Shown: positions 3,713-55,392, counted from the stretch's first letter. The stretch is 64,000 bases of DNA from an uncultured Micavibrio sp. (GCA_963977105.1 CAXBNI010000002.1:44675-108674), one strand, 5' to 3'. Program-made: numbers and translations. Notes: a model not told the origin generated them from the sequence alone.

Positions 3713-6100
3713 TCAATCACCATAAGGCAACCAGATGTTTTTGACCTGTGTGGCCTCGCGCAAGAAACGGCGGCCTTCGCCGTGGGATGATAGCCAATCA
3801 CGCGCTTTGCCGTTATTGACCCATGTGCGCTTGAGGTTCGCGGCGCTTTCTTTTTCAATCATTGCGCTGCCCTCGGCTGATCCATGATACCAAAGCGCTT
3901 CGACTTGGTCATGTTTTGCCAGTACGCCCGCGAGCTCATCACGATCACCTGTGACAATGTTAATCACGCCTGCAGGCAGATCAGATGTTTCAAGGATCTG
4001 ATAAAAATCAGTCGCGAATAATGGGAAGCGTTGCGATGGGATAACGACGGTGCGATTACCCATTGCAATAGCCGGTGCGACTAATGACACAAATGATAAA
4101 AGCGGCATAACGTCTGGGCAGACAATGCCCATAATGCCAATGGGTTCATTCACTGCGAGCGCTACATTTTTAAGTGGCGGGGTATGCACCATACCATCAA
4201 ATTTATCAGCCCAAGCGCCATAGCTAAACAGGCGACTTACCGACATATCAAATTCAGCCTTTGCTGCTTTTTTGCTCACGCCTGTTAGCGTCACAAGACG
4301 GTGAATGATTTCGTCTTCGCGGTAGCTTAGATTTTCCGCAATATAATAAATCACCTGCGCACGATTATGTGCGGTGGCTGATGACCAGCCCGCATTCTTA
4401 AATGCCGCTTCAACTGCGTTACGAATGTCCTTGCGGTTACCTTCGCCGACGCGGCCTGCCATTTTACCGTCATGGGTGAGCACTGTTAGCGTATTGCCGC
4501 CGTCAGGGCGCGCCTGCTTGCCGCCGACATAGTTTTTGGCTGTCTGGTCTATGGCCTTTAAGCCCGCGTCATTGGCGACCTTGCTTGGCGCAGGGGCGTC
4601 AATAAGGTTTCCTTCGCTGCCAAGCCATTCGCCTTTGGGCTTCATGTATTCATACATGCCTTCTTTACCGCCTTCACGGCCAAAGCCAGATTCGCGATAT
4701 CCACCAAAGCCACATGCTGCGTCAAATTGATTGGTGGTATTGACCCAAACAACGCCCGCTTTAACCATTGATGATATTTCAAGGGCGCGGTTAATGTTTT
4801 CCGACCAGATGCTTGCAGCCAGACCAAAACGCGTATTATTGGCAAGGTCTGCGGCTTCTTTTAGTGTACGGAATGTCATCACCGTTAATACTGGGCCGAA
4901 AATCTCATCACGGACAAGCGTGTTACACGGGCTAACATCCGTCACTAATGTTGGCGGATAATAACAGCCCTTATCAGGACAGGTGAATTCAGGCTGCCAA
5001 ATCGTTGCGCCCTCTTCTTCACCTTGGTCAACCATATCCGCAATGCGTTCAAGCTGAATAGGGTCAACAATCGCGCCCATATCCATTGTTTTATCAAGCG
5101 GGTCACCAACGCGGAAATTGTTCAGGCGGGCTTTGATTTTTTCAATCACGCGCTCTGCAATGCCTTCTTCAACTAACAGGCGTGAACCTGCGCAGCAGAC
5201 TTGGCCTTGATTAAACCAGATTGCGTCAACAAGACCTTCAACGGCGCTGTCTAAATCAGCATCTTCAAACACGATATAGGGGGATTTACCGCCAAGTTCT
5301 AATGTCAGCTTTTTGTCGCTACCCGCAGTTGCTTCGCGGATGTAACGGCCAACGCCTGTTGAGCCTGTAAACGCGACTTTCGCAATATCAGGGTGGTTAA
5401 CAATGTGAGAACCTGTTTCCCCAGCGCCAGTAACAATATTAATCACGCCCGCAGGGATGCCAGCTTCCTCACAAAGCTCCGCAAAGTAAAGCGCAGTAAG
5501 TGATGTGTATTCCGCAGGTTTTAACACCACGCAGTTACCCGCCGCAATTGCAGGGGCGATTTTCCACGCCATCATCAATAGCGGGAAGTTCCAAGGAATA
5601 ACCTGCCCGACAACGCCCAAAGGCTCTTGATCCGCCAGTTCTTGATCCATCAACTGCGCCCAGCCTGCATGGTGGTAGAAATGACGCGCCACTAATGGCA
5701 CATCAATATCACGCGTTTCACGAATAGTTTTGCCGTTATCTAATGTTTCAAGCACAGAAAAGAAACGCCCTGTTTTTTGAATAAGGCGCGCTAATGTATA
5801 TAAATGCTTGGCGCGCTCATGCCCAGATAAGCCTGACCATTTTGGGAATGCTTTTGCGGCGGCTTGCACGGCAGCGTCAACGTCTTCCTTACCCGCAACG
5901 GCAATTTTACCTAAATATTCACCGTTCGCAGGATTATGGCTTTTAATGAATTTTTCGCCGCCTTTAGGCGCGATCCATTTACCATCAATAAAAAGCTTAA
6001 AGCCATCTTTATGCGCCGCTAACCATTCATGCACATAATCAGATTGTTCAGGCGCAGGGCCATATGACATTGTTTCGTATATTTCTGCTATATTGTTCAT
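3713..6100 (-). CDS. aldehyde dehydrogenase family protein (full ALDH domain plus a second partial ALDH-like domain)
   Basis: 795 aa. The N-terminal ~500 aa carry the ALDH signatures ELGGKSP and FNQGQVCCAGSR. The C-terminal ~275 aa repeat an ALDH N-terminal/NAD-binding-like segment (NYVGGKQ..., NEPIGIMGIVCP, AGVINIVTG) with no second catalytic Cys motif. Last gene of the deoB-deoC cluster. Confidence 0.9.
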   Translation of the reverse strand: MNNIAEIYETMSYGPAPEQSDYVHEWLAAHKDGFKLFIDGKWIAPKGGEKFIKSHNPANGEYLGKIAVAGKEDVDAAVQAAAKAFPKWSGLSGHERAKHLYTLARLIQKTGRFFSVLETLDNGKTIRETRDIDVPLVARHFYHHAGWAQLMDQELADQEPLGVVGQVIPWNFPLLMMAWKIAPAIAAGNCVVLKPAEYTSLTALYFAELCEEAGIPAGVINIVTGAGETGSHIVNHPDIAKVAFTGSTGVGRYIREATAGSDKKLTLELGGKSPYIVFEDADLDSAVEGLVDAIWFNQGQVCCAGSRLLVEEGIAERVIEKIKARLNNFRVGDPLDKTMDMGAIVDPIQLERIADMVDQGEEEGATIWQPEFTCPDKGCYYPPTLVTDVSPCNTLVRDEIFGPVLTVMTFRTLKEAADLANNTRFGLAASIWSENINRALEISSMVKAGVVWVNTTNQFDAACGFGGYRESGFGREGGKEGMYEYMKPKGEWLGSEGNLIDAPAPSKVANDAGLKAIDQTAKNYVGGKQARPDGGNTLTVLTHDGKMAGRVGEGNRKDIRNAVEAAFKNAGWSSATAHNRAQVIYYIAENLSYREDEIIHRLVTLTGVSKKAAKAEFDMSVSRLFSYGAWADKFDGMVHTPPLKNVALAVNEPIGIMGIVCPDVMPLLSFVSLVAPAIAMGNRTVVIPSQRFPLFATDFYQILETSDLPAGVINIVTGDRDELAGVLAKHDQVEALWYHGSAEGSAMIEKESAANLKRTWVNNGKARDWLSSHGEGRRFLREATQVKNIWLPYGD

Positions 6101-6148
6101 CGTAATAATTCCTAAATTTACTGCCTCGGGTCAAATGCTTCGCGTGGC

Positions 6149-7147
6149 TTAACCTATGGGGTGACGGTTGGCGGCTGAATAACGCCCAGTGACAAAATGC
6201 TCAAGCTGACGCTCAATATCACCAAGCAAGCTTGATGCACCGAAACGGAACATATGCGGCTGTAACCATTCATCGCCCAGTTCTTCTTTAATCAATACCA
6301 AATATTGTAGCGCAATTTTCGTTGTGCCAATGCCGCCCGCAGGTTTGTAACCAACCTTCTGGCCTGTTTTCTCGTAAAAATCGCGGATCATACGGATCAT
6401 CACTAATGATACAGGCAATGTCGCATTGACGCTTTCCATACCGGTTGATGTTTTGATGAAATCAGACCCCGCCATCATACACACCATAGAGGCTTTCGCG
6501 ACTTTGGTAATTGAGCCAAGCTGGCCTGTTGCCAAAATCGCTTTCATATGGGCTTCGCCGCATGCTTCGCGGTATGCCTTTACTTCGTCATAAAGTGCCT
6601 GCCAGTTGCCCGTCAGAACATGACGGCGCGAGATTACAATATCAATTTCTTCTGCGCCCGCAGCAACGGAAGCGCGGATTTCAGCCAATCGTGTTTCAAG
6701 CGGCGCAAGGCCAGCAGGAAAACCAGTTGATACGGCGGCGACAGGAATGCCGCTGCCTTTTAAGGCGTCAACCGCAGTTTCAACCATTTCGTGATACACA
6801 CATATCGCGCCTGTGGTCAGGCCTTTATCAGCGAAACCAAGTGCCTCTAATATGTCAGGGCGTACGGGGTTGCGTGCTTTGGCACAAAGCCTTCTTACGC
6901 GCCCTGGCGTATCGTCACCAGACAAGGTTGTTAAATCAATGCAAGAGATCGCCTTCAGCAACCATGCCGCTTGATATTCTTTTTTCACGGTGCGACGATT
7001 ATTCAGCGTCGCTATGCGGCGATCAACGGCGGATTTGTTAATCTTGATCTCATCAACCCAGTCTGGGTGAAACGCGCAGCCTTCAACGCGCGGCATCGTA
7101 TTATGCAGTATTTCTACGTTATTTTTCAACATATCCTCACTCTTCAT
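6149..7147 (-). CDS. deoC: deoxyribose-phosphate aldolase (long form)
   Basis: 332 aa with a class I aldolase DeoC-type motif around the Schiff-base lysine (DFIKTSTGM). Overlaps deoB by 11 nt. Confidence 0.9.
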
Positions 7148-8378
7148 TTTCTGTTTCCTCCGTCAAGAAAGACGTCCCAAATGGCATTGCGCCTAAGCCT
7201 AAATATGTCGAAAGGCTTGTGCCAATATCTGCGAAGGTGTCACGTTTGCCGATTGAACCGGGTTTTACTTTTGGCCCAAAGGCAATAACCGGCACATGTT
7301 CACGTGTGTGGTCAGAGCCCGGCCATGTTGGGTCGCAGCCATGATCCGCCGTGATCACCACGACATCATCAGGGCGCAATGCCTGCTGCAAGCGTGGTAA
7401 GTTACGGTCAAATTCTTCTAATGCGGCGGCATAGCCAACCACATCGCGGCGGTGACCATAGAGCATATCAAAATCAACAAAATTGGCAAAAACGATTGTG
7501 TTATCATTGGCCTTATCAACATGTTCCATCATCACATCAAAAATCTGTGCGTTGCCATGCGCTTTGTATTTCTGGGTAATGCCTTGATGGGCAAAAATAT
7601 CCGCGATTTTACCAATTGAAATTACTTCGCCGCCAGCTTCCGCCATTTTATCTAGTAATGTTGGCGCAGGGGGCAGAACTGATAAATCACGGCGGTTGCC
7701 TGTGCGCTCAAAATTGCCTGTTGTTTCGCCAAGGAATGGGCGCGCAATTACGCGGCCAATATTATATTCATCAACCAATTTACGCGCCACGGCACAAATT
7801 TCATACAGGCGCTCTAGGCCAAAATGCTTTTCATGCGCAGCAATTTGTAGCACAGAATCCGCTGAAGTATAAACAATCGGTTTACCTGTTTTAATATGTT
7901 CTTCGCCATATTGGTCAAGAATGACTGTGCCCGATGCATGGCAATTGCCCAAAATGCCCGGCAAGTCACATTCTTTAACCAATGCATCAACAAGCGCATC
8001 AGGAAAACTTGGTACTTCTTTAGGGAAGTAACCCCAATCAAACTGCACAGGAACGCCCGCCATTTCCCAGTGACCGCTTGGTGTGTCTTTACCCTTGCTT
8101 AGCTCCGCTGCAAAGCCATATTTACCGGTAATTTCGCCCTCTGCCTTGGCAACTTTAATCTCGTGACCTGCGGATTCTTCTGCCGCAAGACCAAGGCCTA
8201 AACGCATCATGTTCGGGATGTTTAATGCGCCAGAGCGCACGCCGTCTTTATCGGCCTTACCATCGGCGCAATGCTGCGCAATATGGCCAAATGTATTTGC
8301 CCCAATATCGCCGAAATCAGCGGCATCCGCCGTTTCCCCAACACCAAAAGAATCCAAAACAACAATAATCGCGCGCAA
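7137..8378 (-). CDS. deoB: phosphopentomutase
   Basis: 413 aa. [15 protein letters not shown]... at the N terminus and [10 protein letters not shown] are typical of DeoB metal-dependent phosphopentomutases. Confidence 0.95.
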
Positions 8379-8459
8379 AATATTTCTCCTCAGAACACAA
8401 AGCCAGCTTTTACTTAAGGCTAGCTATAAATTTCATACCTACGATAAGAATTTAGCTTC

Positions 8460-8479
8460 ACAAATACAGATATATTTGT
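8460..8479. promoter_or_regulatory. inverted repeat in the deoB/punA divergent promoter region
   Basis: ACAAATA-cagata-TATTTGT (7-6-7). Candidate operator; no regulator gene is seen nearby. Confidence 0.25.
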
Positions 8480-8579
8480 ATTATAGCCAAACTTAAACGT
8501 ACAGACATGTCGATATGGGCGCGATCATACGACATTTTTTTATAAATTTCCATAGCCTTTTATTCAGGGAGTATCAAAT

Positions 8580-9404
8580 ATGACTGCACCAGAGATCGAA
8601 AGAAGCGTTAACGCAATCAAACAACACCATAAAGGGGCCTTCCCCAAGACAGCGATTATCCTCGGCAGCGGCCTTGGTAGCTTCGGTGATAATATGGAGA
8701 TTGAAAGCACGGTTACCTATGACAACATCCCTGATTTCCCACAGCCAACAGTCGAAGGCCATGCAGGCCGCTTGCTTGTTGGCACAGTCGGCGGCACGCC
8801 GCTTGTCTGTATGCAAGGCCGTATGCACCTTTATGAAGGTCACCCAGCGCCGCAGCTTGCCATCGCCATCCGTACATTCAAAAAACTGGGCGTTGAACGC
8901 ATTATCATTACAAATGCAGCGGGTAGCCTGCGCATGAATATGCCCGCGGGATCAATCATGAGCATTGAAGACCACGTCAACATGTCAGGTTTCAACCCAT
9001 TAATCGGCCCAAATGATGATGAATTTGGCTCTCGTTTCTTTGATATGACCGATGCGTGGGACAAAGACCTCCGCGCCGATATGCTCGCCGCTGCACGCCG
9101 CGTTGACGTGAATTTGCACTCTGGTACATATGTCCAGTTCGCGGGCCCTAACTTTGAAACCCCTGCTGAAGTCCGCATGCTCGGCAAACTTGGCCTTGAT
9201 GCCGTTGGTATGTCGACGGTGCAAGAATGCCTCGTTGCACGTCATTGCGGCATTAAAGTCGTTGGCCTGTCGCTTATCACTAATCTAGGCGCTGGCCTTG
9301 CTGGTCACGCCCTCTCGCATGATGAAACTTTAAGCGAAGGCCAGAAAGCTTACGGCGAAGTCAGCAAGGTATTGGTTGAGTTCATTAGCAAGCTGGCGAA
9401 CTAA
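8580..9404 (+). CDS. punA: purine nucleoside phosphorylase (PNP/MTAP family, trimeric type)
   Basis: 274 aa with GRLLVGTVGGTPLVCMQGRMHLYEG and GMSTVQE motifs of the PNP family. Divergent from the deo genes. Confidence 0.88.
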   Translation: MTAPEIERSVNAIKQHHKGAFPKTAIILGSGLGSFGDNMEIESTVTYDNIPDFPQPTVEGHAGRLLVGTVGGTPLVCMQGRMHLYEGHPAPQLAIAIRTFKKLGVERIIITNAAGSLRMNMPAGSIMSIEDHVNMSGFNPLIGPNDDEFGSRFFDMTDAWDKDLRADMLAAARRVDVNLHSGTYVQFAGPNFETPAEVRMLGKLGLDAVGMSTVQECLVARHCGIKVVGLSLITNLGAGLAGHALSHDETLSEGQKAYGEVSKVLVEFISKLAN

Positions 9405-12228: not shown

Positions 12229-12516
12229 CTATGTAATCAGGCATTTTTGCAAGGCATCTCTGTTACGCAGCTTCTTTTGTGCTCCGCCATCTTCTTGCAA
12301 ATAGACTTCACCGGATTCATTGATCGTGATCGTACAGCCATTAGGCAGCACCACCGCATGATCATTAAAGCCTTCTTTAATTGTCGTCACTTTACCTTCA
12401 GTTTTTGCCTTAGCCGGATTGTGGCGGCGTATACCGCCGATACCACCTTCGCCGCCCCACATGACATCATGGCAAAGCTGCGTTTCAATGCGGTGATTAT
12501 AATCTAAGATCTGCAT
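12229..12516 (-). CDS. small paralog 1 of 4 (ILDYN / LPNGC family, unknown function)
   Basis: 95 aa. MQILDYN at the N terminus and a C-terminal module GFNDHAVVLPNGCTITINESGEVYLQE...KKLRNRD. RBS AAGGA lies in the 13-nt spacer. Confidence 0.75.
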   Translation of the reverse strand: MQILDYNHRIETQLCHDVMWGGEGGIGGIRRHNPAKAKTEGKVTTIKEGFNDHAVVLPNGCTITINESGEVYLQEDGGAQKKLRNRDALQKCLIT

Positions 12517-12529
12517 AGCTATAGCGTCC

Positions 12530-12835
12530 TTATTTTACTAATAATTTTTGTAGGCTGTCTTTATTGCGGATTTTTTTGGCCTGACCGCCATCTTCACGCA
12601 TATAAACTTCACCGCTTTCCTTGACTTCGATGACGCAGCCATTGGGCAATTTCAAGCTATGGGTGTTGAAGCCATCTTTACATGTCGTTTCATTGCCTGA
12701 TGTTTGCACCTTGCTCTGTGGCGGTGATGAACGGCCGCGTGTACCACCAGAGTAATGGGTACAAACCCCATCATCAATCATAATTTCATGACAATGTCGC
12801 GCTGTTATGTTTTGGTTATAATCTAATATCTTCAT
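12530..12835 (-). CDS. small paralog 2 of 4 (ILDYN / LPNGC family)
   Basis: 101 aa. MKILDYN..., GFNTHSLKLPNGCVIEVKESGEVYMRE...KKIRNKD. A 13-nt spacer separates it from the next gene. Confidence 0.75.
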   Translation of the reverse strand: MKILDYNQNITARHCHEIMIDDGVCTHYSGGTRGRSSPPQSKVQTSGNETTCKDGFNTHSLKLPNGCVIEVKESGEVYMREDGGQAKKIRNKDSLQKLLVK

Positions 12836-13125: not shown

Positions 13126-13494
13126 CTATTTCACCAATAAACACTGTACGCTGTCTTTATTGCGTAACTTTTTAGGCGCGGCGTTAGCTTCTTGCAAAAA
13201 GACCTCACCGTTTTCCTGCACATTTATAACGCAGCCATTAGGCAGCTCTATACTATGCGTATTAAAGCCTGCTTTTAAGCTTGTCTTCTCCGCGCCGCTT
13301 TGCACGAGTTTCTTCTTAGCTTCGACCTGTTGTATACGAGCTTTCACATTGTCCACATTGCCAGCGCAGCCTACGCGTTCACCATGCCCTGCGCCCAAAG
13401 CGCTTGAAATATTGATTCTATCCTGTTCATAATCACCAGGCATCATCTGCACCATCGCCGTGTTTATTTTCTCGTTATAATCGAGTATATGCAT
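13126..13494 (-). CDS. small paralog 4 of 4 (ILDYN / LPNGC family), first gene of the array
   Basis: 122 aa. MHILDYN..., GFNTHSIELPNGCVINVQENGEVFLQE...KKLRNKD. It has the longest central insert (~51 aa). Confidence 0.75.
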   Translation of the reverse strand: MHILDYNEKINTAMVQMMPGDYEQDRINISSALGAGHGERVGCAGNVDNVKARIQQVEAKKKLVQSGAEKTSLKAGFNTHSIELPNGCVINVQENGEVFLQEANAAPKKLRNKDSVQCLLVK

Positions 13495-15592: not shown

Positions 15593-16987
15593 CTATATGT
15601 GTAATGGACGGCCATCAACGGCAAGCGCCGCTTCTTTAACCGCTTCTTCCAATGTTGGGTGTGCGTGACATGTCCGTGCAATGTCTTCGGCTGATCCGCC
15701 AAATTCCATTGCGATAACAATTTCAGATATTAATGTCCCTGCTTCTGGGCCAATAATATGTGCGCCAAGCACGCGGTCAGTATCTTTATGTGCCAATATT
15801 TTAACAAAGCCATCTGTGCAGTTCATCGCGCGCGCGCGGCCATTTGCCATGAACGGGAATTTACCTGCTTTATATGGAATGCCCTCTTCCTTAAGCTGCT
15901 CTTCGGTTTTACCCACGGCTGCGATTTCAGGGTGTGTATAGACAACGCCAGGGATTAAGTTGTAATCAATATGCGGCTTTTGCCCATCAAGCATTTCAGC
16001 CAAGATAACGCCTTCATCTTCTGCTTTATGCGCAAGCATTGGCCCTGCGATTACATCGCCAATCGCATAAATGCCTTTAACGCTGCTTTGGAAATGGCCA
16101 TCAACTTCAATGCGGCCGCGATCATCGGTTTTTACGCCGACGCTATCAAGGCCGAGGCTCTCTGTATAAGCTTTACGGCCAACACTCATTAAGACGATAT
16201 CAGCTTTGACTTGTTCGGCTTTACCGCCTGCGGCTGGTTCAATAGAAAGCGTCACGCCATCTTTGCCTTTTTTGGCTTCTGTCACCTTGCTTGAAAGACG
16301 GAATGTCATGCCTTGCTTTTTGAACAGCTTCAATGCTTCTTTGCGCACTTCGTTGTCCATGCCCGGTAAAATACCATCCAAAAACTCAACAACTTCAACT
16401 TCCGCGCCAAGACGGCGCCATACGGCGCCCAGCTCTAGGCCGATTACGCCGCCGCCAATAACAACCATTTTCTTTGGCACTTTATCTAGTTCAAGTGCGC
16501 CTGTTGAAGACACGATTTGTTTTTCATCAATTTCAATGCCCGGCAGGCTAATCACATCAGAACCTGTCGCAATAACAATATGTTTTGCCTTATACGCTTC
16601 GCCGCCAACGTCGACGCTATTCGCCGCAGTGATTTTACCTGCGCCTTTTAGCCATGTGACTTTGTTCTTTTTAAACAAAAATTCGATGCCTTTAGTATTG
16701 TCGCTAACGACATTATCTTTAAAGTTCATCATCTTTTGTAGGTTCAGCTTGACGTTGCCCGTAGTGATGCCCATTTCTTCATATTCATGCTTTGTTGCTT
16801 CAAGCTTTTCAGAAGCCGCGAGTAGCGCTTTAGAAGGAATACAGCCAATATTAAGACATGTGCCGCCCAATGTATCGCGTTTTTCAACGCATGCGACCTT
16901 CATACCTAATTGTGCTGCGCGAATTGCGCAAACATAGCCACCTGGGCCTGATCCTATGATGATGACATCAAACTCTTTATCAGCCAT
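15593..16987 (-). CDS. lpdA: dihydrolipoyl dehydrogenase (E3)
   Basis: 464 aa with IIGSGPGGY (FAD binding) and the GGTCLNIGCIPSK redox-active disulfide. No E1 or E2 genes are adjacent. Confidence 0.95.
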   Translation of the reverse strand: MADKEFDVIIIGSGPGGYVCAIRAAQLGMKVACVEKRDTLGGTCLNIGCIPSKALLAASEKLEATKHEYEEMGITTGNVKLNLQKMMNFKDNVVSDNTKGIEFLFKKNKVTWLKGAGKITAANSVDVGGEAYKAKHIVIATGSDVISLPGIEIDEKQIVSSTGALELDKVPKKMVVIGGGVIGLELGAVWRRLGAEVEVVEFLDGILPGMDNEVRKEALKLFKKQGMTFRLSSKVTEAKKGKDGVTLSIEPAAGGKAEQVKADIVLMSVGRKAYTESLGLDSVGVKTDDRGRIEVDGHFQSSVKGIYAIGDVIAGPMLAHKAEDEGVILAEMLDGQKPHIDYNLIPGVVYTHPEIAAVGKTEEQLKEEGIPYKAGKFPFMANGRARAMNCTDGFVKILAHKDTDRVLGAHIIGPEAGTLISEIVIAMEFGGSAEDIARTCHAHPTLEEAVKEAALAVDGRPLHI

Positions 16988-17121
16988 TTTTTATCCTTCT
17001 GATTCTGTTGCATTAAAATTTCTATAATATATGTAGCGCCTTTGCAGGGTGAAGACGAGTTTTATTTAAAAAATGCCCCCCTATTTCCAAGAGGCTTTCA
17101 TTTACTATGAAAATAAACATA

Positions 17122-17150
17122 TTGACGTAATTGCATATATTTGCTTATAT
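17122..17150 (+). promoter_or_regulatory. candidate sigma70-type promoter
   Basis: TTGACG-N17-TTATAT, 31 nt upstream of ATG 17181. It lies inside the longer ORF-track prediction, which supports the 17181 start. Confidence 0.4.
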
Positions 17151-17180
17151 GCATCATCTCAAATAAGAACAGGGGACGGC

Positions 17181-18431
17181 ATGAGCAAGGTCATACAGAC
17201 ACTAACGGCAATAGCTGGGAATAAATCTGGTTCTCCTTTACTGGACGCCTTTGAGCGCGAGAATTTAATCGCCTACCCCATCGACCCAACAATTGAGCCT
17301 GAAATAAAAATGCTGTGGTCAACACGCATTAAAACAACAAAAAATCAGCTCAAGAAAATTTTCAACTGTTATTCAAACGCGACGACACATGACAAGTCAC
17401 AAGACCACTTCGTCTACATACCGCTTACGATTGAAGCCAATAATTACGATTTAACCAGCTTTGCGGTTGATACTTTCAAACGCAACCCAAAAACAGGCGG
17501 CCCCATCCCAACGATGGAGCTCACCAAGACTGGCTACCAGGCACGCCTGCGTATGGCAATTTCATTAGCATCCCGCGAACAGCAGCTTTTGGAGCAAATC
17601 AAAAATTACAACAGCCCAGACCAACTCTCGAAACATCCGATACAAAAACTCAGCCCCGCCACCTGCTTTGGCCCGCCAGAATTTAGTATCAAAACATTAT
17701 GGTCTGATGATGATTCTGTATTCAGGAATGAGTATGAAGCCAAGGTTGGCTATGCGCCCGATGTACTCGGTATTTATTTAACGCAGATGAAAAAAGACCT
17801 ACCAGAAGAGCTTTATAAGCAGCTTAAAGACATCCGTAAGGATAAAGAGGTCTCTCTGGGGGTTACTGCCGTCTGCATGACACGCCGCTTAGCGTATTTT
17901 ATTGCCCATTACGTGCATGAACATGATGCTTATGTGCTTTATGAATGCACATTAGACAGAAACAAATTTTGTTCACCCAACAACACCTATATACGCGGAC
18001 AGGATTTAGAACAAGAATTTGAAGCTATTTGCGTATTACCATCACGCATTGATGCACATTTATCGCCAGAACAACAAACAGAGGTGCTGGCTAAGTCTTT
18101 AGAAAACTTTGAAAGCCATGTCACTGAAAACATTCAAGGCTTAAAGCGCAGCCCCGGCAGCAAAATGGAGCGTGCGACAAGCGCAGTTGAGCAATATTAC
18201 AAACGCAACCGTAGCCGTTTGCCTGAGTATTTCAAAAATGCTGCTGAGCGTAAGGACGTGGCACAGTTTGATGGTAAATACGCCATCATGGAGCAAGTCT
18301 CGCCGCACGAAGCCATGGCTTATATCGGCAGTGGTTACGAAAAACTCGCGAAGCTATTTGTTGAAGATCACGACGACAAAGAACAATTTGTTGATAAGAA
18401 TCTTTTTTCTTCTCAAGCAAAGCCTAAATAA
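17181..18431 (+). CDS. hypothetical protein, paralog A of a two-member family
   Basis: The ORF track starts at 17073; ATG 17181 is preceded by AGGGGA and is preferred (416 aa). Shares CMTRR..F..HYV.EH.AYV.YECT.D.N.F and GSKMERA motifs with 18631..19884. Confidence 0.7.
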   Translation: MSKVIQTLTAIAGNKSGSPLLDAFERENLIAYPIDPTIEPEIKMLWSTRIKTTKNQLKKIFNCYSNATTHDKSQDHFVYIPLTIEANNYDLTSFAVDTFKRNPKTGGPIPTMELTKTGYQARLRMAISLASREQQLLEQIKNYNSPDQLSKHPIQKLSPATCFGPPEFSIKTLWSDDDSVFRNEYEAKVGYAPDVLGIYLTQMKKDLPEELYKQLKDIRKDKEVSLGVTAVCMTRRLAYFIAHYVHEHDAYVLYECTLDRNKFCSPNNTYIRGQDLEQEFEAICVLPSRIDAHLSPEQQTEVLAKSLENFESHVTENIQGLKRSPGSKMERATSAVEQYYKRNRSRLPEYFKNAAERKDVAQFDGKYAIMEQVSPHEAMAYIGSGYEKLAKLFVEDHDDKEQFVDKNLFSSQAKPK

Positions 18432-19896: not shown

Positions 19897-20892
19897 ATGA
19901 AGATTCTCGGCTTAGGAAATGCTGTTATTGATGTAACAGCAAATATTGAAGATGACTTTCTTGATACGCATGAGATCAAGAAAGGCCTATGTTATGAATC
20001 ACATATCGACGACGTTCCTAAATATTTAGACACATTGCAAAAACTCGGCGTTGAGACAGCCTATAGCGCAGGCGGTAGCGCGGCCAATACAATGGTCTGC
20101 ATTGCTGCGCTCGGCGGACAGGCATCATTTAGCGGCTTTATTGGCGCAGATAAGGATGGTGACTTCTTCAAGGATAGCCTTGCTCTTTACGATGTCGCCA
20201 CCCAAGACATGATTATCCGCAGCAATGACGAAACAGGAAAAATATTCATCCTCGTTACGCCAGACTGCCAGCGTAGCTTCATGTCATTCCACGGCGCATC
20301 GGCCTCTGCGCAGCCAGAAGACGAACACAAACAAATGATCCAAGCTAATGACGCTCTATACATAGAGGGTTTCTCACTTTATTCGCCCAAGGGCTATGAA
20401 ATGTATAAAGCGGCATCAGATATTGCACGCCAAGAAGGTAAGCTAATTATCTTTAACCCGTGTGATGCCAATGTCGTTGCTGAAAAAGCCGAAAGCGTCA
20501 CCGACCTTATGGGGCGCGCCGACATTATCATTGCCAACCGCCTTGAGGCGCTTGCAATGACCCATGAAAAAACACTAGAATCCGCCTTAGATGCACTAGG
20601 AAAAATGCATAAAAAATGCGTTATCATTACCGACAGCGCCAATGGCGCGTATATTCTTGAGGGCAACACCTTAACGCACAGCCCAATTGAGCGCACACCG
20701 CCAAAAATCGTTAATGATAACGGCGCTGGTGATAATTTTGCTGGTGGTTTCTTATTCGGCTATTTACAGCAAGGACTTCCCGCCGCGCAAGCCGCTAAGA
20801 TCGGTCATTTATGCGCAGGCTATATTTTAGGGCAGAGCGCTTCACGCCCAGCGCAAAAAGACGACTTGAAAAAACTACTTTCCACGTTATAA
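19897..20892 (+). CDS. PfkB-family carbohydrate/nucleoside kinase (adenosine-kinase-like)
   Basis: 331 aa with AGGSAANT and the PfkB signature DNGAGDNFAGGFLFG. Starts 12 nt after the preceding gene. Confidence 0.85.
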   Translation: MKILGLGNAVIDVTANIEDDFLDTHEIKKGLCYESHIDDVPKYLDTLQKLGVETAYSAGGSAANTMVCIAALGGQASFSGFIGADKDGDFFKDSLALYDVATQDMIIRSNDETGKIFILVTPDCQRSFMSFHGASASAQPEDEHKQMIQANDALYIEGFSLYSPKGYEMYKAASDIARQEGKLIIFNPCDANVVAEKAESVTDLMGRADIIIANRLEALAMTHEKTLESALDALGKMHKKCVIITDSANGAYILEGNTLTHSPIERTPPKIVNDNGAGDNFAGGFLFGYLQQGLPAAQAAKIGHLCAGYILGQSASRPAQKDDLKKLLSTL

Positions 20893-20915
20893 TCACATCC
20901 CAATAACCCTACAGG

Positions 20916-21908
20916 ATGTTTGTCACTATGCATGATGACTTACTGCCTATCGCCGCCATGGAACGCGCCGTCGATATTGTTCTTAGCTCCCCCCACCCGA
21001 CCAGCAAAGTGTCTGCGGCTCTTTTTGGTCGCGACCTTAATGGTGATGATTATATCATTGCACGTACGAATCGGTGGCCGGAGCGCATTGAACAATGCTT
21101 CACGCATGATGACCGCATCGGCAATAGTAGCGGTACAATCCACGCCGAGACAGCCTGTATCCTCGCCGCGCCCTACACAAAAGACGCGTCGATTTGCGTG
21201 ACAGACCCATTTTGTCCAAACTGCGCCAAAAACATCGTCGAGGCAGGCATCAAAGCGGTCTATATTGACCACAAAGGCTTTATCAAAGATTTCGCAGCCC
21301 GTCGCGGCCACGACTTTGAAAATATGTCATTGAAAATTGTTGAACGTGCGGGCATTGCGATTTTTGAGGTGATCCGTAAAGATAAAATCATCCAGCCCAT
21401 CCAGATCCCCAAAGAAGGTTACCGCCCGAAAAGCGCGAACCCACCAATTATCAAAGCGCTTGAACAAGCTCCGTCAATGACGCTTTTCTTAAATGAGGTC
21501 AATGCCGCTAAAAATATTTATGATGACGACACACCTTTTTGCGTTGCCCTATCAGAAGATCGCCATCGCGCGCTGTACAGCATTACATTAAGCGCCCATT
21601 TATCACGTGGCATTAAAAAAGGTAGCGAGGCTGAAGCCCCCGCCCATCAATTAGAACAAAAATATAACTATACCATCCCACCGCTCAACCGCTTAATGAT
21701 CGGCGCGCATAAATACGGCCATCGCGTCTTAGACGATTATATTTATTTATCACACATCCCCTCAGGACGAGAGCTTATTAATTTAATGGGGGAATCCGGC
21801 CAGCAAAAATTGTTTTTTGATAAACGAGAGAACATGACGAAATATTCATCGCCGCAAGCTTTAGCGCAGCTGACGCAAGCAGGCCTTGTCAAAGCAGAGT
21901 ATATTTAA
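20916..21908 (+). CDS. CDA-fold (dCMP-deaminase-like) zinc deaminase with an unknown ~180-aa C-terminal extension
   Basis: 330 aa with H76-A-E78 (TIHAETACI) and C100-P-N-C103 (FCPNCAKNIVEAGIKAVYI), the zinc and catalytic motifs of the cytidine/deoxycytidylate deaminase fold. Residues ~150-330 have no recognisable motif. Confidence 0.8.
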   Translation: MFVTMHDDLLPIAAMERAVDIVLSSPHPTSKVSAALFGRDLNGDDYIIARTNRWPERIEQCFTHDDRIGNSSGTIHAETACILAAPYTKDASICVTDPFCPNCAKNIVEAGIKAVYIDHKGFIKDFAARRGHDFENMSLKIVERAGIAIFEVIRKDKIIQPIQIPKEGYRPKSANPPIIKALEQAPSMTLFLNEVNAAKNIYDDDTPFCVALSEDRHRALYSITLSAHLSRGIKKGSEAEAPAHQLEQKYNYTIPPLNRLMIGAHKYGHRVLDDYIYLSHIPSGRELINLMGESGQQKLFFDKRENMTKYSSPQALAQLTQAGLVKAEYI

Positions 21909-22120
21909 GACGGGACGTTTTTGCACGGAATAAGGCTCCTGCCTTTTTGTTCTTCTTTAATCGCATCGCTTAATGATTCACTATCTGCCCCATCATCATT
22001 AACCGCCTTTTGAAATGAAGGACACGAAGACTGGCCAAAGTTTTCGCAGTTCTTGCAGCCCTCATCCGCGTTATCGACAATGTCTTTAGCTTTTGTTTTT
22101 ATATCATTATTTTTACCCAT
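21905..22120 (-). CDS. hypothetical small Cys-containing acidic protein
   Basis: 71 aa with RBS AGGGA. Its stop codon overlaps the stop of the convergent deaminase gene (TTAA). Confidence 0.45.
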   Translation of the reverse strand: MGKNNDIKTKAKDIVDNADEGCKNCENFGQSSCPSFQKAVNDDGADSESLSDAIKEEQKGRSLIPCKNVPS

Positions 22121-22167
22121 GTCGCAGCCATCCCTTTATGCGTCATTAAAATCGCCCTGTCTTGCCC

Positions 22168-23334
22168 CTAGTGCAAAAACGGCGTTAATGTTGTGCCCTG
22201 CACACAAAACACAGAATCGCCTGCAACTTTATTTTCTTTATCTTTGATGCCTTGTGCGCTGCACTGAGCTAACTCTTGCGCGCGAATACGCAGCTCATCA
22301 TGTATTTCTGTCTGCAAAGATGACAGCATATAGCTAAAGAGATCAGCGTCTTCATCACCAATTTCAACGGCAAGTTCATCAACCCACTTTTCGAGGGCGG
22401 CTAATGTCTCTTTAAAGTCCTCCGCGTCCATTTCGGTCTCAATAAAGCCATTCGCCATATCCCCCATTTGTGCAAAATAACATTCATATGCCCAGTCCTG
22501 CGCTTGGTCGAGCACTTCTAAAATTTTCCCGTCGCCGTCTTGTTTATCCGGTAAAGCATCCATATAGTCGATTTGATCTTGTAACAGACTAATTACATCA
22601 CCAGACGTCCCCGCCTCATCACCAGGCAAGCCATGCTCAACGATTAATTCCTCTAAGCTGTCTGTGTAAAAGGCAGGCATAATCTCGCAGAGTATAGCCA
22701 CAACATTTTTCGTCAGCGGTAAGGTCATATGCCCCCCTTCACCGATGTTCATTTGTATGAGTACAGCGTCTTCTTCTGCATTTTGTACCTCGACCTCCAA
22801 GGCCGCAAATGGGTCTGCTTTCTCTTCATATTTCTGCTCTAAGTTAACAGCAAGATGCGGATAGATCATCGCCATGTATTCAACAACAGGCATATAAGCC
22901 TCTGCATTGTCATAGTCATCCTTTGCCATCAGAGCCTCGCTTTGCTCAATCAGAGCGTTAAAAATTATAGAAATTGACTGCTCGTCATCACCAATAGTGT
23001 CAAGGACCGCTTCAATGTATTGCTCTGATACACCTGCATAATATGAACTTACAGTATCAGCAAGATCATCAATTGCGCCCATAATTTGACCGCTAAGCAA
23101 TCCACGTTCTGCCATTTCAAGACGATATTCGCGAATCGAATCGAGAACAGTATTATCACTGACCGCAAACTTACCTGTGACTTCGCCATCCGGATGAATT
23201 ATGGGGCTTGCCGCGCAAAGCGCCGCGAGCTCATCATATGTAGGCAGCGCTGTGAATTCTGTAATGTCGCCTGCGCCATCCATTAATATCATTGGATGCT
23301 GCGCGAGAATATTGTTTATGTTGCTATAATCCAT
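22168..23334 (-). CDS. hypothetical highly acidic protein
   Basis: 388 aa, very D/E-rich throughout. No motif recognised. Confidence 0.7.
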   Translation of the reverse strand: MDYSNINNILAQHPMILMDGAGDITEFTALPTYDELAALCAASPIIHPDGEVTGKFAVSDNTVLDSIREYRLEMAERGLLSGQIMGAIDDLADTVSSYYAGVSEQYIEAVLDTIGDDEQSISIIFNALIEQSEALMAKDDYDNAEAYMPVVEYMAMIYPHLAVNLEQKYEEKADPFAALEVEVQNAEEDAVLIQMNIGEGGHMTLPLTKNVVAILCEIMPAFYTDSLEELIVEHGLPGDEAGTSGDVISLLQDQIDYMDALPDKQDGDGKILEVLDQAQDWAYECYFAQMGDMANGFIETEMDAEDFKETLAALEKWVDELAVEIGDEDADLFSYMLSSLQTEIHDELRIRAQELAQCSAQGIKDKENKVAGDSVFCVQGTTLTPFLH

Positions 23335-23363
23335 TTTATTCTACCTAACTTGATTAATGTGCC

Positions 23364-23735
23364 TTAAAAGGAACACGCTTTGGCCGTGTCTCTCACTAAA
23401 TTTTCTAATTGCTTTGCCTTATAACAGTCTTGAAAAGCCCGCTCACTATGCCCAACTTTCAATGCGCTACGCTGCGCTGTCAACTCATCAAGGCATATTT
23501 TCCATTCATCCTGCCGCGCTGAGCATGTAACCTGCTCCAATGCATTTTCAATACGCAGTTCAAGCTCAGCTGCACGGCGAAACACATCACGGCGATAAGT
23601 TTCCGTCTTCTCACTCGCCCAATCATTGAACATCGATAGTAAGCCTTGACCTTGTTCAGGCTCTTTATCGCCGCGCTGATCTTTTCGGCGCTGCTCTTCG
23701 CTTGTGTAAATTTTCTGAGATTGTAATCCACCCAT
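23364..23735 (-). CDS. hypothetical charged/coiled-coil protein
   Basis: 123 aa, preferred over the overlapping ORF 23480..23818 on composition. The N terminus is MGGLQSQK. Confidence 0.55.
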   Translation of the reverse strand: MGGLQSQKIYTSEEQRRKDQRGDKEPEQGQGLLSMFNDWASEKTETYRRDVFRRAAELELRIENALEQVTCSARQDEWKICLDELTAQRSALKVGHSERAFQDCYKAKQLENLVRDTAKACSF

Positions 23736-28374: not shown

Positions 28375-28398
28375 AGCCTTCTCCCAAGAATAAAAATA

Positions 28399-28755
<357 letters not shown>

Positions 28756-28947: not shown

Positions 28948-29883
28948 ATGTTTATAAATACACTCAAAGCCATAGATACAGCGCAGCTACGCCTCAAAGA
29001 CCACGAGGCCGCAGACATCTTGCATAATGTCACGCAGGCTTACGATGCCCTTTTCAAACGCTTTGAGCAAACGCACGCTATAAACAAACCGCTTTATGTG
29101 ATTATGGGTGAATATCACGACCGCCCTTCACATCACATTGCGCATACCCTACTCACCAGATGCTTAAGCGACCTAGCAAGCCCTATTATCACGGCATTAG
29201 AATGCCCGATAAACATCAAAGCATCCGATTACCCCGGACTAAAGCTGACGGCTTCAACTAAACGGGCGCTCTGCCCCGAAAGCGTATCAAATTTAGATTT
29301 GTTAAAAAATTATATGATGTCTGAACATGCCCCATATTCAGGGCAATCTTTTGAAGCGAGCCTTATCCATCAGCGAGACCGCCTCATCACAATATTTAAT
29401 GACATCGCGCGCAATGATGACTATACCATGGATTTATCAAGCATGCTTGGCCCTAACGAGGCGGACCTAGCGCGGGGCATCACTTCGAAATCAGTAAATG
29501 GTGTTGCCCTGCGTAACATCCATATGAGCGACCATCTCATCGCTGCGGTAAAGGAATACAAGGCGCCATTAGCTATACAGATTTGCGGGCAGGCGCATGT
29601 TAACGGCTCAGAATTTAATTCACCTAAAGAGAGCCTTACCGGCTTGCTCAAAGCGAAAAAACAAGAGGTATTCAACATTTTTTGGGGCGCAGCCAGTGCA
29701 ATGCCCATACATCTTGCACCGTCTGAATTTTACATTAGTAAAAATATGCCTGACCGCTACATCAACTATCAGCAACATGGCTCCATAGATGATTACAGCC
29801 CCGAAGAGCTTGAAAACTATAACCTTGAAAAAGATTATGTGCAGCGTGTCTATCAATCATTAGGCATCAAGCCACCACAATAA
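28948..29883 (+). CDS. hypothetical protein, paralog 1 (GExH / GxAHxxG motifs, ChaN/Tiki-superfamily-like)
   Basis: 311 aa with LYVIMGEYHDRPSHH and LAIQICGQAHVNGSEF. Collinear with 29991..30935. Confidence 0.7.
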   Translation: MFINTLKAIDTAQLRLKDHEAADILHNVTQAYDALFKRFEQTHAINKPLYVIMGEYHDRPSHHIAHTLLTRCLSDLASPIITALECPINIKASDYPGLKLTASTKRALCPESVSNLDLLKNYMMSEHAPYSGQSFEASLIHQRDRLITIFNDIARNDDYTMDLSSMLGPNEADLARGITSKSVNGVALRNIHMSDHLIAAVKEYKAPLAIQICGQAHVNGSEFNSPKESLTGLLKAKKQEVFNIFWGAASAMPIHLAPSEFYISKNMPDRYINYQQHGSIDDYSPEELENYNLEKDYVQRVYQSLGIKPPQ

Positions 29884-29990: not shown

Positions 29991-30935
29991 ATGTATATAG
30001 ACAAGTTGAAAGCGATCAACCAAGATGAATTGCGGCTTACAAATGACGAAGCGGTCGATATACTTCATAATGTCATCACAGCCTATGATGCCATCATCCA
30101 GCGGAAAGCACAGCTCGTTCAACAAGGCTCAAGCAGACCGCTTTATGTGCTATTAGGCGAACAGCACGCTTCTGTCTCTCAAAAAATTTCACAGACCCTA
30201 CTCATAAAGTGCCTGAGCGAAGCCTTTTATGATCGCGATAAAAACTCCGCCGTGACGAACAAGCCGATTGTAAGTGCCTTAGAGCACCCCATATCCATAA
30301 AAGCGCCGCTTCCTCTTGATGGTTCGCGTTCTGATAAAGTGGTTTGCCCACAAAGCGCCGCGAATATAGTTCATTTATTAGAATCCCACTTTTCTAAAAA
30401 CACTCCACTTACTTTGAAATATTTTCAAATGGGTCTTTCCAGCATGCAGCATCGCTTAACGACAATATTTAGCGATGTCGCACGCCATGAAAACCGCACA
30501 CTGAAACTGCCGAACCAAGCAGATGACGGTATTGACCCGCGTGAAGAAAAGGCCTTATTCATCCGCAACCAGCATATGTATACCCAGCTTCAGCAGGAAG
30601 CCGTAAGACATCAAGCGCCGTTAGCCATTCAAGTCTGCGGTCAAGCACATGTCAATGGCGGCGAATTATGCGCACAAGAATACGGCTTAGCAAACATTTA
30701 TAAGGACGCCGGACAAGACGTTTTTTGCGTATTTTGGGAAGAGAGCTGCGCAGACACGTCAGAGCTAACAGACACAGAATATTTCGTGGCGCGTAATATG
30801 CCAGAGCGCTACATTAGTTACAACTTGTTCACAGCGGATGGCCAAAATATTGACGAGAACCAATCTGGCTACCAGCTCGAAGATCAATATTTACAAGGCT
30901 TTACAAAGGCCTTAAAAGGCGCCAAGCCCTTCTAA
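29991..30935 (+). CDS. hypothetical protein, paralog 2 (GExH / GxAHxxG motifs)
   Basis: 314 aa. MYIDKLKAINQDELRLTNDEAVDILHNV aligns to MFINTLKAIDTAQLRLKDHEAADILHNV. Also carries LYVLLGEQHASVS and LAIQVCGQAHVNGGEL. Confidence 0.7.
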   Translation: MYIDKLKAINQDELRLTNDEAVDILHNVITAYDAIIQRKAQLVQQGSSRPLYVLLGEQHASVSQKISQTLLIKCLSEAFYDRDKNSAVTNKPIVSALEHPISIKAPLPLDGSRSDKVVCPQSAANIVHLLESHFSKNTPLTLKYFQMGLSSMQHRLTTIFSDVARHENRTLKLPNQADDGIDPREEKALFIRNQHMYTQLQQEAVRHQAPLAIQVCGQAHVNGGELCAQEYGLANIYKDAGQDVFCVFWEESCADTSELTDTEYFVARNMPERYISYNLFTADGQNIDENQSGYQLEDQYLQGFTKALKGAKPF

Positions 30936-35031: not shown

Positions 35032-35685
35032 CTAAGTGCGTGGTAATGTCACGCCTTTTTGTCCCATGTATTTACCGCCACGATCACTATAGTTAACTTC
35101 GCATGCGCTAGAGCCTTTAAAGAACAAGAACTGACAAACGCCTTCATTCGCATAGATTTTCGCGGGTAGCGGCGTTGTGTTTGAAATCTCAAGCGTAACA
35201 TGGCCTTCCCAGCCGGGCTCCAACGGTGTGACGTTTACAATCAAACCACAGCGCGCATAAGTACTTTTACCAAGGCAAATAACAAGCGCGTCTTTAGGAA
35301 TTTTAAAATACTCAACAGTGCGGCACAGCACAAAGCTATTTGGCGGAATAACGCAAACGTCACCTTTACGCTCAACAAAGCTTTTCTCTGAGAAATTCTT
35401 TGGGTCAACAAGCGCATTATCAACATTTGTGAAAATCATAAATTCATCAGCAAGACGAGAGTCATAACCATATGATGACAGCCCATAAGAAATAATTTTT
35501 TCTTCATCAACGTAACGTACCTGACCATCAACAAACGGCGTAATCATCCCCTGATTTTCAGCTTGTTCTCTAATCCAATGATCCGGCATGATGCCCGGTA
35601 GATGGTCTGCGCTATCTTTTAACAAACGCATAGCCTCGCTTGGTTTGCCTTCTGCGCCCGTTTTTGTGCCTAGAGTATCGCTCAT
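35032..35685 (-). CDS. dcd: dCTP deaminase
   Basis: 217 aa with LSSYGYD and a dUTPase-like trimeric fold pattern. The conserved Dcd core starts at IMPDHWIRE (M33, coordinate 35589), so the true start may be 35589. ATG 35685 has the better RBS. Confidence 0.9.
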
Positions 35686-35990: not shown

Positions 35991-36065
35991 GCCGCGGTAG
36001 CTCAGTGGTAGAGCGCGTCATTGGTAATGACGAGGTCGAGAGTTCAATTCCCTCTCGTGGCACCA
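35991..36065 (+). tRNA. tRNA-Thr (anticodon GGT)
   Basis: Cloverleaf folded by hand: acceptor GCCGCGG/TCGTGGC, D arm GCTC-AGTGGTA-GAGC, anticodon arm CGTCA-TTGGTAA-TGACG, T arm GAGAG-TTCAATT-CCCTC (one mismatch), and an encoded CCA. Confidence 0.9.
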
Positions 36066-40581: not shown

Positions 40582-40743
40582 TGAAATAAATCTCCAGAAG
40601 ATGAGGTAAAAACAGAATACGGGAAGAAACACAAAACGGGCGAACGCCCAAATACAGGTTAAATCATAACACATTTACAAAGTTTTAAAAGAGCCCGCGT
40701 GCAAAAAACTGCGCACGGATGAAAGCCAAAGATAGCCGCGCAT

Positions 40744-55317: not shown

Positions 55318-55392
55318 GCCCGGGTAGCTCAGTGGTAGAGCAGAGGATTGAAAATCCTCGTGTCGGTAGTTCAATTCTACCTCCGGGCACCA
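55318..55392 (+). tRNA. tRNA-Phe (anticodon GAA)
   Basis: Cloverleaf folded by hand: acceptor GCCCGGG/TCCGGGC, anticodon arm GAGGA-TTGAAAA-TCCTC, T arm GGTAG-TTCAATT-CTACC, and an encoded CCA. Confidence 0.92.

Follow-up and report, generated by a model that had tools for sequence, protein, structure and literature searches.

Why should a PfkB-family kinase gene be followed almost immediately by the gene of a zinc-dependent deaminase that carries a long C-terminal extension? The question is raised by a 64,000-nt stretch of DNA from an uncultured Micavibrio sp. (GCA_963977105.1, CAXBNI010000002.1:44675-108674; hereafter "the window"), in which these two genes close a block of four whose first two members are paralogs of an unannotated family. 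A first-pass annotation of the window had offered two answers, a mundane metabolic pair of kinase and nucleotide deaminase, or a split version of the known anti-phage nucleotide-depletion proteins that combine both kinds of domain. Our analysis supports an answer of the first kind: on balance, we consider it probable that we are dealing with an operon on the chromosome that converts cytosine nucleotides and is peculiar to the Micavibrio lineage, and not with a defence system. In the predicted structure of the 330-aa deaminase, an active deaminase domain is followed by a dead one.

The six-frame list of open reading frames (ORFs) of the window contains four co-oriented genes on the + strand beyond lpdA (Table 1), and bears out both the ORFs and the short gaps claimed in the first-pass annotation, namely 12 nt between paralog 2 and the PfkB gene and 23 nt between the PfkB gene and the deaminase. 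Two of the starts may have to be moved. The ORF of paralog 1 is open from 17073, whereas its homologs favour 17181, which is probably the correct start; as for the deaminase, its nearest homologs start with the residue that corresponds to M5 (MHDDL...), and the true start of the window's gene may therefore be 20928, in which case the gap would be 35 nt. A promoter-like site that overlaps the PfkB stop codon could be an internal promoter from which the deaminase is transcribed, the number of such sites in the region being no higher than in shuffled sequences, and a terminator-like hairpin with a T-run just past the deaminase could possibly mark the end of the operon.

The N-domain of the deaminase has the features of an active zinc enzyme. 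Its two motifs, HAE (residues 76-78, nt 21141-21149) and CPNC (residues 100-103, nt 21213-21224), lie exactly where they had been reported and are invariant in an alignment of 37 homologs (A1). The protein barely passes the Pfam dCMP_cyt_deam_1 threshold (25.5 vs 25.0 bits), while profile searches against PDB reach 1VQ2 at 1.2e-8 and 4P9C at 1.5e-6, and profile-profile comparison (hhalign) pairs the N-domain with T4 Cd at a probability of 96.8% (E 2e-10, 38% identity over 76 columns). The signature of the dCMP-deaminase clade, NxxP at the end of strand 2 (Iyer et al., PMC3239186), is provided by an invariant N52-x-W54-P55 directly after the strand modelled at residues 45-51. When the full-length AlphaFold2 (AF2) model, built on the 37-homolog alignment (pLDDT 89, pTM 0.89), was compared with known structures by Foldseek, it matched human DCTD (2W4L, 3e-6) and the dCMP deaminases of PBCV-1 (bi-DCD), S. 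mutans and T4, and it also aligned over its full length, in about 345-354 columns, with two-domain cytidine deaminases (1CTT, 4EG2, 6K63 and 6L08). By its sequence, the N-domain has diverged from the rest of the dCMP-deaminase (DCTD/ComEB) clade, of which it is an offshoot, and its substrate is most likely a cytosine nucleotide, with (d)CMP being converted to (d)UMP. A RibD-like fusion of deaminase and reductase, considered for the length of the protein, was rejected, as there is no Pfam RibD_C match and the C-domain folds as a cytidine deaminase (CDA) domain.

That C-domain is the "extension" that was said to match nothing from residue 150 or so onwards. At the level of sequence this statement stands, since neither Pfam (searched with 27 members) nor a profile search of PDB produced a match; at the level of the fold it does not. 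Modelled alone (AF2 on alignment A2, pLDDT 87), residues 172-330 have their best Foldseek match in PBCV-1 bi-DCD (7FH4, E 8e-5, TM-score 0.58/0.64), followed by the S. mutans enzyme (2HVW, 8e-5, 0.51/0.54), human DCTD (2W4L, 1e-3, 0.45/0.44) and 4P9E (6.5e-3, 0.55/0.68), and beyond dCMP deaminases one finds only APOBEC3 domains and then noise. In the AF2 model, helices and strands follow one another in residues 188-329 as they do in residues 5-153, and the two halves of the protein match each other in hhalign (E 3e-4), in a register that brings S283 to the position of C100 and E286 to that of C103. Relative to T4 Cd, HAE corresponds to I254-P255-P256 (consensus L-E-P) and PCxxC to P-(S/T)-x-R-E. 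H228 was ruled out as the equivalent of the HAE histidine, because both the secondary-structure register and hhalign point to residues 254-256; it is placed close to where the allosteric loop lies in DCTD. According to the model, then, the C-domain is a second dCMP-deaminase-like domain that has lost its catalytic Glu along with all three zinc ligands, and without the His/Cys/Cys ligands and this Glu it should be unable to deaminate.

Loss of the active site has not meant loss of conservation, as H228, G232, K249, Y250, P256, N258, R259, P282, R285, E286, N289 and G292 are invariant or nearly so across the 37 homologs. A C-domain profile search of 1.84e9 representative sequences retrieved 149 clusters (50% identity), nearly all of which have the domain at about residues 165-320 in proteins with a length of about 300-400 aa, an indication that it exists in fused form only. 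CDA-fold enzymes are oligomers whose interfaces shape the active and allosteric sites, as in DCTD, E. coli CDA and CDADC1. We infer that the extension arose through internal duplication of the fold of the N-domain, and that the dead domain would serve, structurally, as a built-in partner subunit in a pseudo-dimer. It may perhaps also sense nucleotides: a pocket formed by the conserved K249, Y250, N258, R259, R285 and E286 could bind a nucleotide effector, which would stand in for the DCTD allosteric motif that the N-domain does not have.

How does this design compare with known ones? With the dCMP deaminases and ComEB (2W4L, 1VQ2, 2HVW, 7FH4) the Micavibrio protein shares HAE, PCxxC, NxxP after strand 2 and a C-terminal AGI-x-V...RK in its N-domain, and these enzymes are the top fold matches of both domains. 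In contrast, it is twice as long, with a zinc-less second copy fused C-terminally, it has neither their conserved structural-zinc insert nor the G(Y/W)N(A/G) motif, and it is confined to the Micavibrio lineage. Vertebrate CDADC1 (9HFQ-9HFT) likewise has two DCTD-derived domains per chain, one dead and one active, and its dead domain is thought to be architectural (PMC12088426). There the inactive domain is N-terminal and the active one C-terminal, whereas the Micavibrio order is the reverse; the dead domain of CDADC1 binds zinc and keeps HAG, whereas in Micavibrio the H, the E and both Cys are replaced; and CDADC1 has 534 aa rather than 330. Since the similarity between the two is only weak, an independent origin is indicated. 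Two-domain cytidine deaminases of the E. coli type also combine an N-terminal catalytic with a C-terminal non-catalytic CDA domain in one chain. Their domain packing differs from that of our model, judging from TM-scores of only 0.33-0.38 and a root-mean-square deviation of about 9 Å, and each Micavibrio domain resembles dCMP deaminases, not the CDD/CDA clade, so that the two duplications were presumably separate events. The Micavibrio protein is thus closest to dCMP deaminases by descent and closest to CDADC1 and the E. coli-type cytidine deaminases by design, while it is a member of neither design. No description of a bacterial active/dead tandem was found in the literature that we searched, which is absence of evidence only. 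If the assignment is correct, Micavibrio-type predators carry their own fused active/dead deaminase of the dCMP type, a second and independent case of the CDADC1 design, which lends itself to studying how a catalytic domain that has died can be recycled as a structural or regulatory partner.

The long deaminase is a fixed component of Micavibrio genomes. A large protein collection contains 761 full-length homologs of 305-360 aa, which align over about 84-100% of the query at identities as low as about 40%, so that the extension belongs to the family throughout. With one genome taken per species, the gene was found in 189 species genomes of the Micavibrio lineage, labelled as Micavibrio, Alphaproteobacteria, Rhodospirillales or Pseudobdellovibrionaceae (the last being NCBI's placement of Micavibrio); Micavibrio sp. 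UBA2705 shares 94% protein identity with the window. The neighbourhood counts given below refer to the 80 loci that we retrieved from these 189 species. Nearly always, the deaminase lies between lpdA upstream and sucB downstream, both on the opposite strand: lpdA is so placed at 62 of the 80 loci, and 17 of the remaining 18 have one or more contig ends within 10 kb of the deaminase. Such a constant position is what one would expect from a fixed, vertically inherited gene. Among phage sequences there was no deaminase match, and the plasmid set gave one partial match only. A clade-wide deaminase that has the extension in all relatives is the larger part of what the first-pass annotation had named as evidence against its defence proposal; the remaining part, the lack of any linkage to the neighbouring genes, is not what we observed, as the linkage to PfkB is real.

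Within this neighbourhood, the clade to which the window belongs is exceptional in that sucB is absent downstream. The window has instead, at 21905-23735 (-), two genes without Pfam matches (388 and 123 aa), followed by dnaK-dnaJ, and comparison with loci L004 and L006 shows that this break in synteny is common to relatives of 73-94% identity. A Micavibrio-type deaminase beside sucB also occurs on a 10-kb contig (NZ_JAQGJM010000052.1) of a metagenome-assembled genome labelled "Devosia sp.", which is probably a mis-binned contig. In four genomes a second, diverged two-domain deaminase (24-34% identity) stands beside the first; three of these four copies keep H[A/S]E and CPNC, while the one at L024 has HGE and CPTC and decayed C-domain motifs.

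As for the kinase, Pfam PfkB matches it at 5.6e-51 (174.1 bits vs a gathering threshold of 25.8), and the signature on which it had been called ribokinase/adenosine-kinase-like is indeed present, as DNGAGDNFAGGF at residues 274-285. Its motifs comprise GNAVID (7-12), GG (59-60), NRLE (NxxE, 214-217) and DNGAGD (274-279). In PDB it aligns end to end with the alphaproteobacterial adenosine kinases of S. meliloti (3UBO, 8.3e-39, residues 3-319) and R. etli (4E3A, 1e-37), with which it shares all PfkB catalytic motifs and the GNxxxD nucleoside-ribose motif; eukaryotic adenosine kinases follow at about 1e-18 to 1e-19, and every NCBIfam equivalog stays below its cutoff. These matches identify it as a PfkB-family nucleoside kinase of the adenosine-kinase subgroup. 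It differs from the known adenosine kinases in that identity falls sharply, from 73-88% among close relatives to at most about 37% for anything beyond its own small clade, and in that it is operon-linked to the long deaminase in the Micavibrio lineage.

This linkage can be observed directly in the gene order of other genomes. PfkB lies directly upstream of the long deaminase at 21 of 82 loci (the 80 scanned, plus L087 and L089), and the distance from the PfkB stop to the deaminase start is between -23 and +57 nt in 19 of the 20 loci measured, including three 4-bp overlaps; the twentieth, L037, is an artefact of start calling. These tight gaps persist even though the kinases share only 26-37% identity with that of the window, and the PfkB-linked loci fall into at least five separate clusters of a neighbour-joining tree of the deaminase, its deepest branch included. 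Starting from the kinase leads to the same result. Out of the three next-best kinases examined, two (37% and 33% identity) directly precede a gene of 313-324 aa between lpdA and sucB that tblastn identifies as a long-deaminase homolog, and the third, from another lineage (L088), has an unrelated context with no long deaminase beside it. Since the pairing recurs across at least five clusters of the tree with near-zero gaps, it is old and real, and the metabolic pair suggested at first sight gains support from the same counts. At the two deepest PfkB-linked loci, L087 and L089, a small gene matching Pfam Inhibitor_I78 follows directly after the long deaminase.

PfkB is not the only gene found next to the deaminase. 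The slot between lpdA and the deaminase is empty at 12 loci and otherwise varies in content; at four loci it holds the tandem second copy of the long deaminase described above. At 17 loci a cytosine deaminase of the yeast Fcy1 type, about 150 aa long, divergently adjoins the long deaminase; the label "TadA", its best NCBIfam match below cutoff, was discarded in view of the match to the yeast enzyme. A large LOG-like protein often lies between lpdA and this cytosine deaminase, and for its 911-aa representative PDB gave no sequence match. Both alternative neighbours of the long deaminase therefore indicate cytosine-to-uracil chemistry.

The two genes upstream of PfkB had been called paralogs of one another, and they are (31% identity over about 350 aa, 8e-45). 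The large protein search retrieved 11 relatives, all "hypothetical", and in an alignment of 14 members (A3) there are few invariant residues, nearly all of them charged: E44-x-E46-x-K48, R123-x-R125, K170, R181-x-E183-x-E185, R234, D257, E276-x-E278-x-E280 and S325-K326 are invariant or nearly so. In paralog 2 the corresponding motifs are ENELK (44-48), RVR (123-125), RGEFEV (181-186), EMEFE (276-280) and SKMERA (325-330). The CYTH or triphosphate tunnel metalloenzyme (TTM) pattern consists of an ExExK hallmark, xRxR, an acidic ExE and a C-terminal plug helix (PMC8233210), and ExExK, xRxR and ExE all occur in the paralog family. In the CYTH domain of E. coli YgiF (5A60) one finds the same eight motifs in the same order (collinear ExExK, RxR, K, RxE, D, ExExE and SKxxR), with ENELKF of paralog 2 facing EIELKF of YgiF, MRVR facing LRIR, VKT facing MKV, RGEFEV facing RPEYNV, ECTID facing EIALD, EMEFE facing ELELE and SKMERA facing SKAARG. 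A permissive hhalign run against YgiF pairs all motifs over 192 columns, but at a probability of at most 1%; its score of 19.7 exceeds those of 150 out of 150 shuffles (mean 12.6, standard deviation 2.1), and a global hhalign run produced a meaningless alignment of three columns. Moreover, the paralogs, with their long inserts, are roughly double the length of a CYTH domain and do not have the AC-IV "HF" and ThTPase "W" specificity motifs (as defined in PMC8233210), and the failure of Pfam, NCBIfam and PDB to return any match to the family speaks against the assignment. Weighing these points, we think it quite probable that the paralogs have a TTM-like fold, in which case they may add to the TTM superfamily a branch that current profile libraries cannot detect. 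Homologs between lpdA and PfkB were found by BLAST at 12 of the 80 loci; with a hidden Markov model (HMM), L067 can be added, as can L087, which was fetched separately, and a further cluster of proteins of 341-432 aa in the same position is weakly reached. In public records the paralogs are "hypothetical", the long protein is a "deoxycytidylate deaminase" and no Pfam model exists for its C-domain; there is room to improve the annotation of all three.

In the operon that we consider probable, the active domain would change a cytosine nucleotide into its uracil counterpart, in the simplest case (d)CMP into (d)UMP. PfkB would be co-transcribed with the deaminase, and translationally coupled to it in some relatives, and the kinase would supply a nucleoside monophosphate to the deaminase pathway, possibly by turning (deoxy)cytidine into (d)CMP; from the coupling one would predict that this PfkB nucleoside kinase may act on a substrate other than adenosine. 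The paralogs, if they are TTM (CYTH-like) enzymes, may act on a triphosphorylated substrate in the same context. Nucleoside turnover is prominent in the window as a whole, which also carries deoC, deoB, a PNP-family enzyme, an aldehyde dehydrogenase and dcd.

Several observations weigh against this account. At residues 56-75 of the 37 homologs there is no conserved Cys that could belong to a structural-zinc insert, and an S25-P-H27 precedes strand 1. The DCTD allosteric motif, G(Y/W)N(A/G) (PMC12088426), does not occur in the N-domain, which has x-T51-N52-(Y/H/F)53 where T4 Cd has G-Y-N-G, in a register set by eye and anchored on KVxAxx and NxxP. The NCBIfam ComEB equivalog is not reached either (30.4 bits vs a cutoff of 219.45). 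Lacking the zinc insert and the allosteric motif, and being far below the ComEB cutoff, the protein is no ordinary dCMP deaminase, and its substrate could differ. Furthermore, about three quarters of the lineages have the deaminase without PfkB, and because the nearest characterised relatives of the kinase are adenosine and not cytidine kinases, the two enzymes may not share a pathway. A canonical dcd, which the first-pass annotation had correctly noted (Pfam DCD, 4.4e-34), provides an alternative route to dUMP. Finally, M. aeruginosavorus is reported to synthesise nucleotides de novo and to have no known nucleotide transporters (PMC3189940), which weakens any rationale based on salvage from prey.

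Some of these points would be explained if unrelated housekeeping genes simply shared one transcription unit, with PfkB as an adenosine kinase of purine salvage and the deaminase acting independently in pyrimidine metabolism. The closest solved and named PfkB relatives are adenosine kinases, most lineages keep the deaminase without PfkB, and a variety of genes can occupy the space that separates lpdA from the deaminase. We nevertheless regard this as unlikely, although it is the alternative to be taken most seriously. The pairing has survived deep divergence of the kinase, with the genes overlapping or near-touching, and is found in separate parts of the deaminase tree, whereas the next PfkB relative outside the lineage lies in an unrelated context; conserved translational coupling would be unusual between functionally unrelated genes.

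A more ambitious version of the cytosine-nucleotide operon would be an uncharacterised three-enzyme C-to-U module of obligate epibiotic predators, made of a divergent TTM family, a PfkB kinase retuned to pyrimidine (deoxy)nucleosides, and an independent bacterial counterpart of CDADC1 whose dead domain, remodelled at K249, Y250, N258, R259, R285 and E286, would provide a nucleotide sensor or triphosphate pocket in place of classical dCTP/dTTP allostery. Taken as a whole, this is doubtful. Somewhat more doubtful still is a bacterial functional analogue of vertebrate CDADC1, in which (d)CTP would be deaminated, the dead domain would build the oligomer or the triphosphate pocket, and the TTM-like paralogs would share the triphosphates. 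CDADC1 is a DCTD-derived tandem of inactive and active domains that prefers dCTP and CTP (PMC12088426), and it is among the fold matches of our protein (9HFS/9HFQ). In PBCV-1 bi-DCD, which deaminates dCMP and dCTP, the C-domain has its best fold match and the whole protein one of its top matches, and conserved basic residues in the dead domain next to genes resembling triphosphate enzymes would fit such a function. The CDADC1 matches are weak (sequence E 8.6e-4; Foldseek E 5e-3, TM-score 0.28), the reversed domain order and the complete loss of zinc set the dead domain apart from the N-terminal domain of CDADC1, a canonical dcd of the trimeric type is already encoded, and a nucleoside kinase as neighbour suggests a pool of monophosphate products.

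The proposal of a split anti-phage system, in which kinase and deaminase (together with the partner proteins) would deplete dCTP/dCMP and starve the phage, we consider very improbable. The anti-phage dCTP deaminase has 576 aa in a single chain, with a kinase domain at its N-terminus and a deaminase domain at its C-terminus, both essential, and it was discovered by the enrichment of its genes in defence islands (10.1101/2021.04.26.441389). What the two systems have in common is a CDA-fold zinc deaminase associated with a kinase, and it is true that the region upstream of the Micavibrio deaminase varies between genomes and that the zinc-motif region weakly matches two models of the defence enzyme, NF041025 (E 6.9e-4) and PADLOC dCTPase (E 4.9e-6). 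These matches amount to 18.6 bits against a cutoff of 400 in the NCBIfam model, with similarity limited to about 45 residues around HAE/PCxxC, and to 23.7 bits over 48 residues (71-118) in the PADLOC model; PADLOC finds nothing for PfkB and only sub-threshold matches for the paralogs. In place of a fusion there is a separate PfkB-family gene, with the deaminase domain N-terminal in its own protein, and in place of a defence-island gene there is one that is syntenic and fixed in 189 species genomes, has no phage match and one partial match in the plasmid set, and has housekeeping neighbours (lpdA, ndk, dnaK and dnaJ) with no mobile-element or defence genes flanking it. Architecture, model scores and distribution are thus all contrary to the proposal, and a false lead is removed.

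Least probable of all is a predation effector delivered into prey, which would corrupt nucleotide pools or nucleic acids like the deaminases of polymorphic toxins: the host lineage consists of obligate epibiotic predators (PMC3189940), many bacterial CDA-fold toxins are known (PMC3239186) and Pfam MafB19-deam gives a sub-threshold match (E 1.5e-4, 22 vs 27 bits), but the deaminase has neither an extension at its N-terminus nor a signal or trafficking domain (helix 1 begins at residue 5 of the model), both domains best match metabolic dCMP deaminases and not toxin clades, no conserved immunity-like small gene adjoins the deaminase, and its position is fixed within the 2-oxoglutarate dehydrogenase gene neighbourhood.

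Table 1. Coordinates of the locus, of other features of the window, and of related genes at loci of other Micavibrio-lineage genomes (L numbers)
Feature	Position	Strand	Remarks
lpdA (dihydrolipoyl dehydrogenase)	15593-16987	-	conserved upstream anchor of the locus
Paralog 1, 452-aa ORF	17073-18431 (likely start 17181)	+	unannotated family of ~350-450 aa with TTM/CYTH-like motifs
Paralog 2, 417 aa	18631-19884	+	same TTM/CYTH-like family as paralog 1
PfkB-family kinase, 331 aa	19897-20892	+	Pfam PfkB; adenosine-kinase subgroup
Promoter-like site	20866-20893	+	TTGAAA-16-TATAAT, 11/12; overlaps PfkB stop codon; consensus scan
Long deaminase, 330 aa	20916-21908	+	zinc motifs HAE and CPNC
Deaminase N-domain, residues 1-165	20916-21410	+	predicted intact zinc-dependent dCMP-deaminase-like CDA fold
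Deaminase C-domain, residues 172-330	21429-21908	+	predicted dCMP-deaminase-like fold without zinc site (pseudo-deaminase)
Terminator-like hairpin and T-run	21932-21945	+	24 nt past deaminase stop; pattern scan
dcd	35032-35685	-	canonical
Aldehyde dehydrogenase	3713-6100	-	nucleoside/deoxyribose catabolism cluster (3713-9404)
DeoC-family aldolase	6149-7147	-	same catabolism cluster
Phosphopentomutase-like metalloenzyme	7137-8378	-	same catabolism cluster
PNP/UDP-family phosphorylase	8580-9404	+	same catabolism cluster
Three small paralogous ORFs	12229-12516, 12530-12835, 13126-13494	-	95-122 aa
RNase P RNA class A	28395-28755	-	334.6 bits
Tandem paralog pair	28948-29883, 29991-30935	+	311 and 314 aa
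tRNA-Thr(GGT)	35991-36065	+	
Adjacent giant paralogous ORFs	36940-40674, 40805-44128	-	1244 and 1107 aa
tRNA-Phe(GAA)	55318-55392	+	
Fcy1-type cytosine deaminase	L004:7449-7904, L032:3293-3745, and 15 further loci	- (both named)	PDB 2O3K/1UAQ, E 3e-38, full length
LOG-like protein, 716-980 aa	L004:4582-7317, and 19 further loci	- (L004)	weak C-terminal LOG/TIGR00730 (nucleotide nucleosidase-like) domain
Second deaminase copies	L015:8890-9936, L047:6988-7971, L069:12457-13491, L024:1581-2771		
Inhibitor_I78 gene	L087:7987-8484, L089:7927-8202		directly after long deaminase

Elsewhere in the window, the RNase P RNA, tRNA-Thr and tRNA-Phe are ordinary housekeeping RNAs. Three further groups of paralogous ORFs were observed. 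The three small ORFs stand in tandem and share an N-terminus of the form M-x-ILDYN..., and one copy of the tandem pair has a sub-threshold match to ChaN/Tiki haem-binding proteins (E 1.6e-4). Both of the adjacent giant ORFs have MKLDIKKLLLAGTAIVAVG soon after their listed start, and for this reason they presumably encode secreted or surface proteins.

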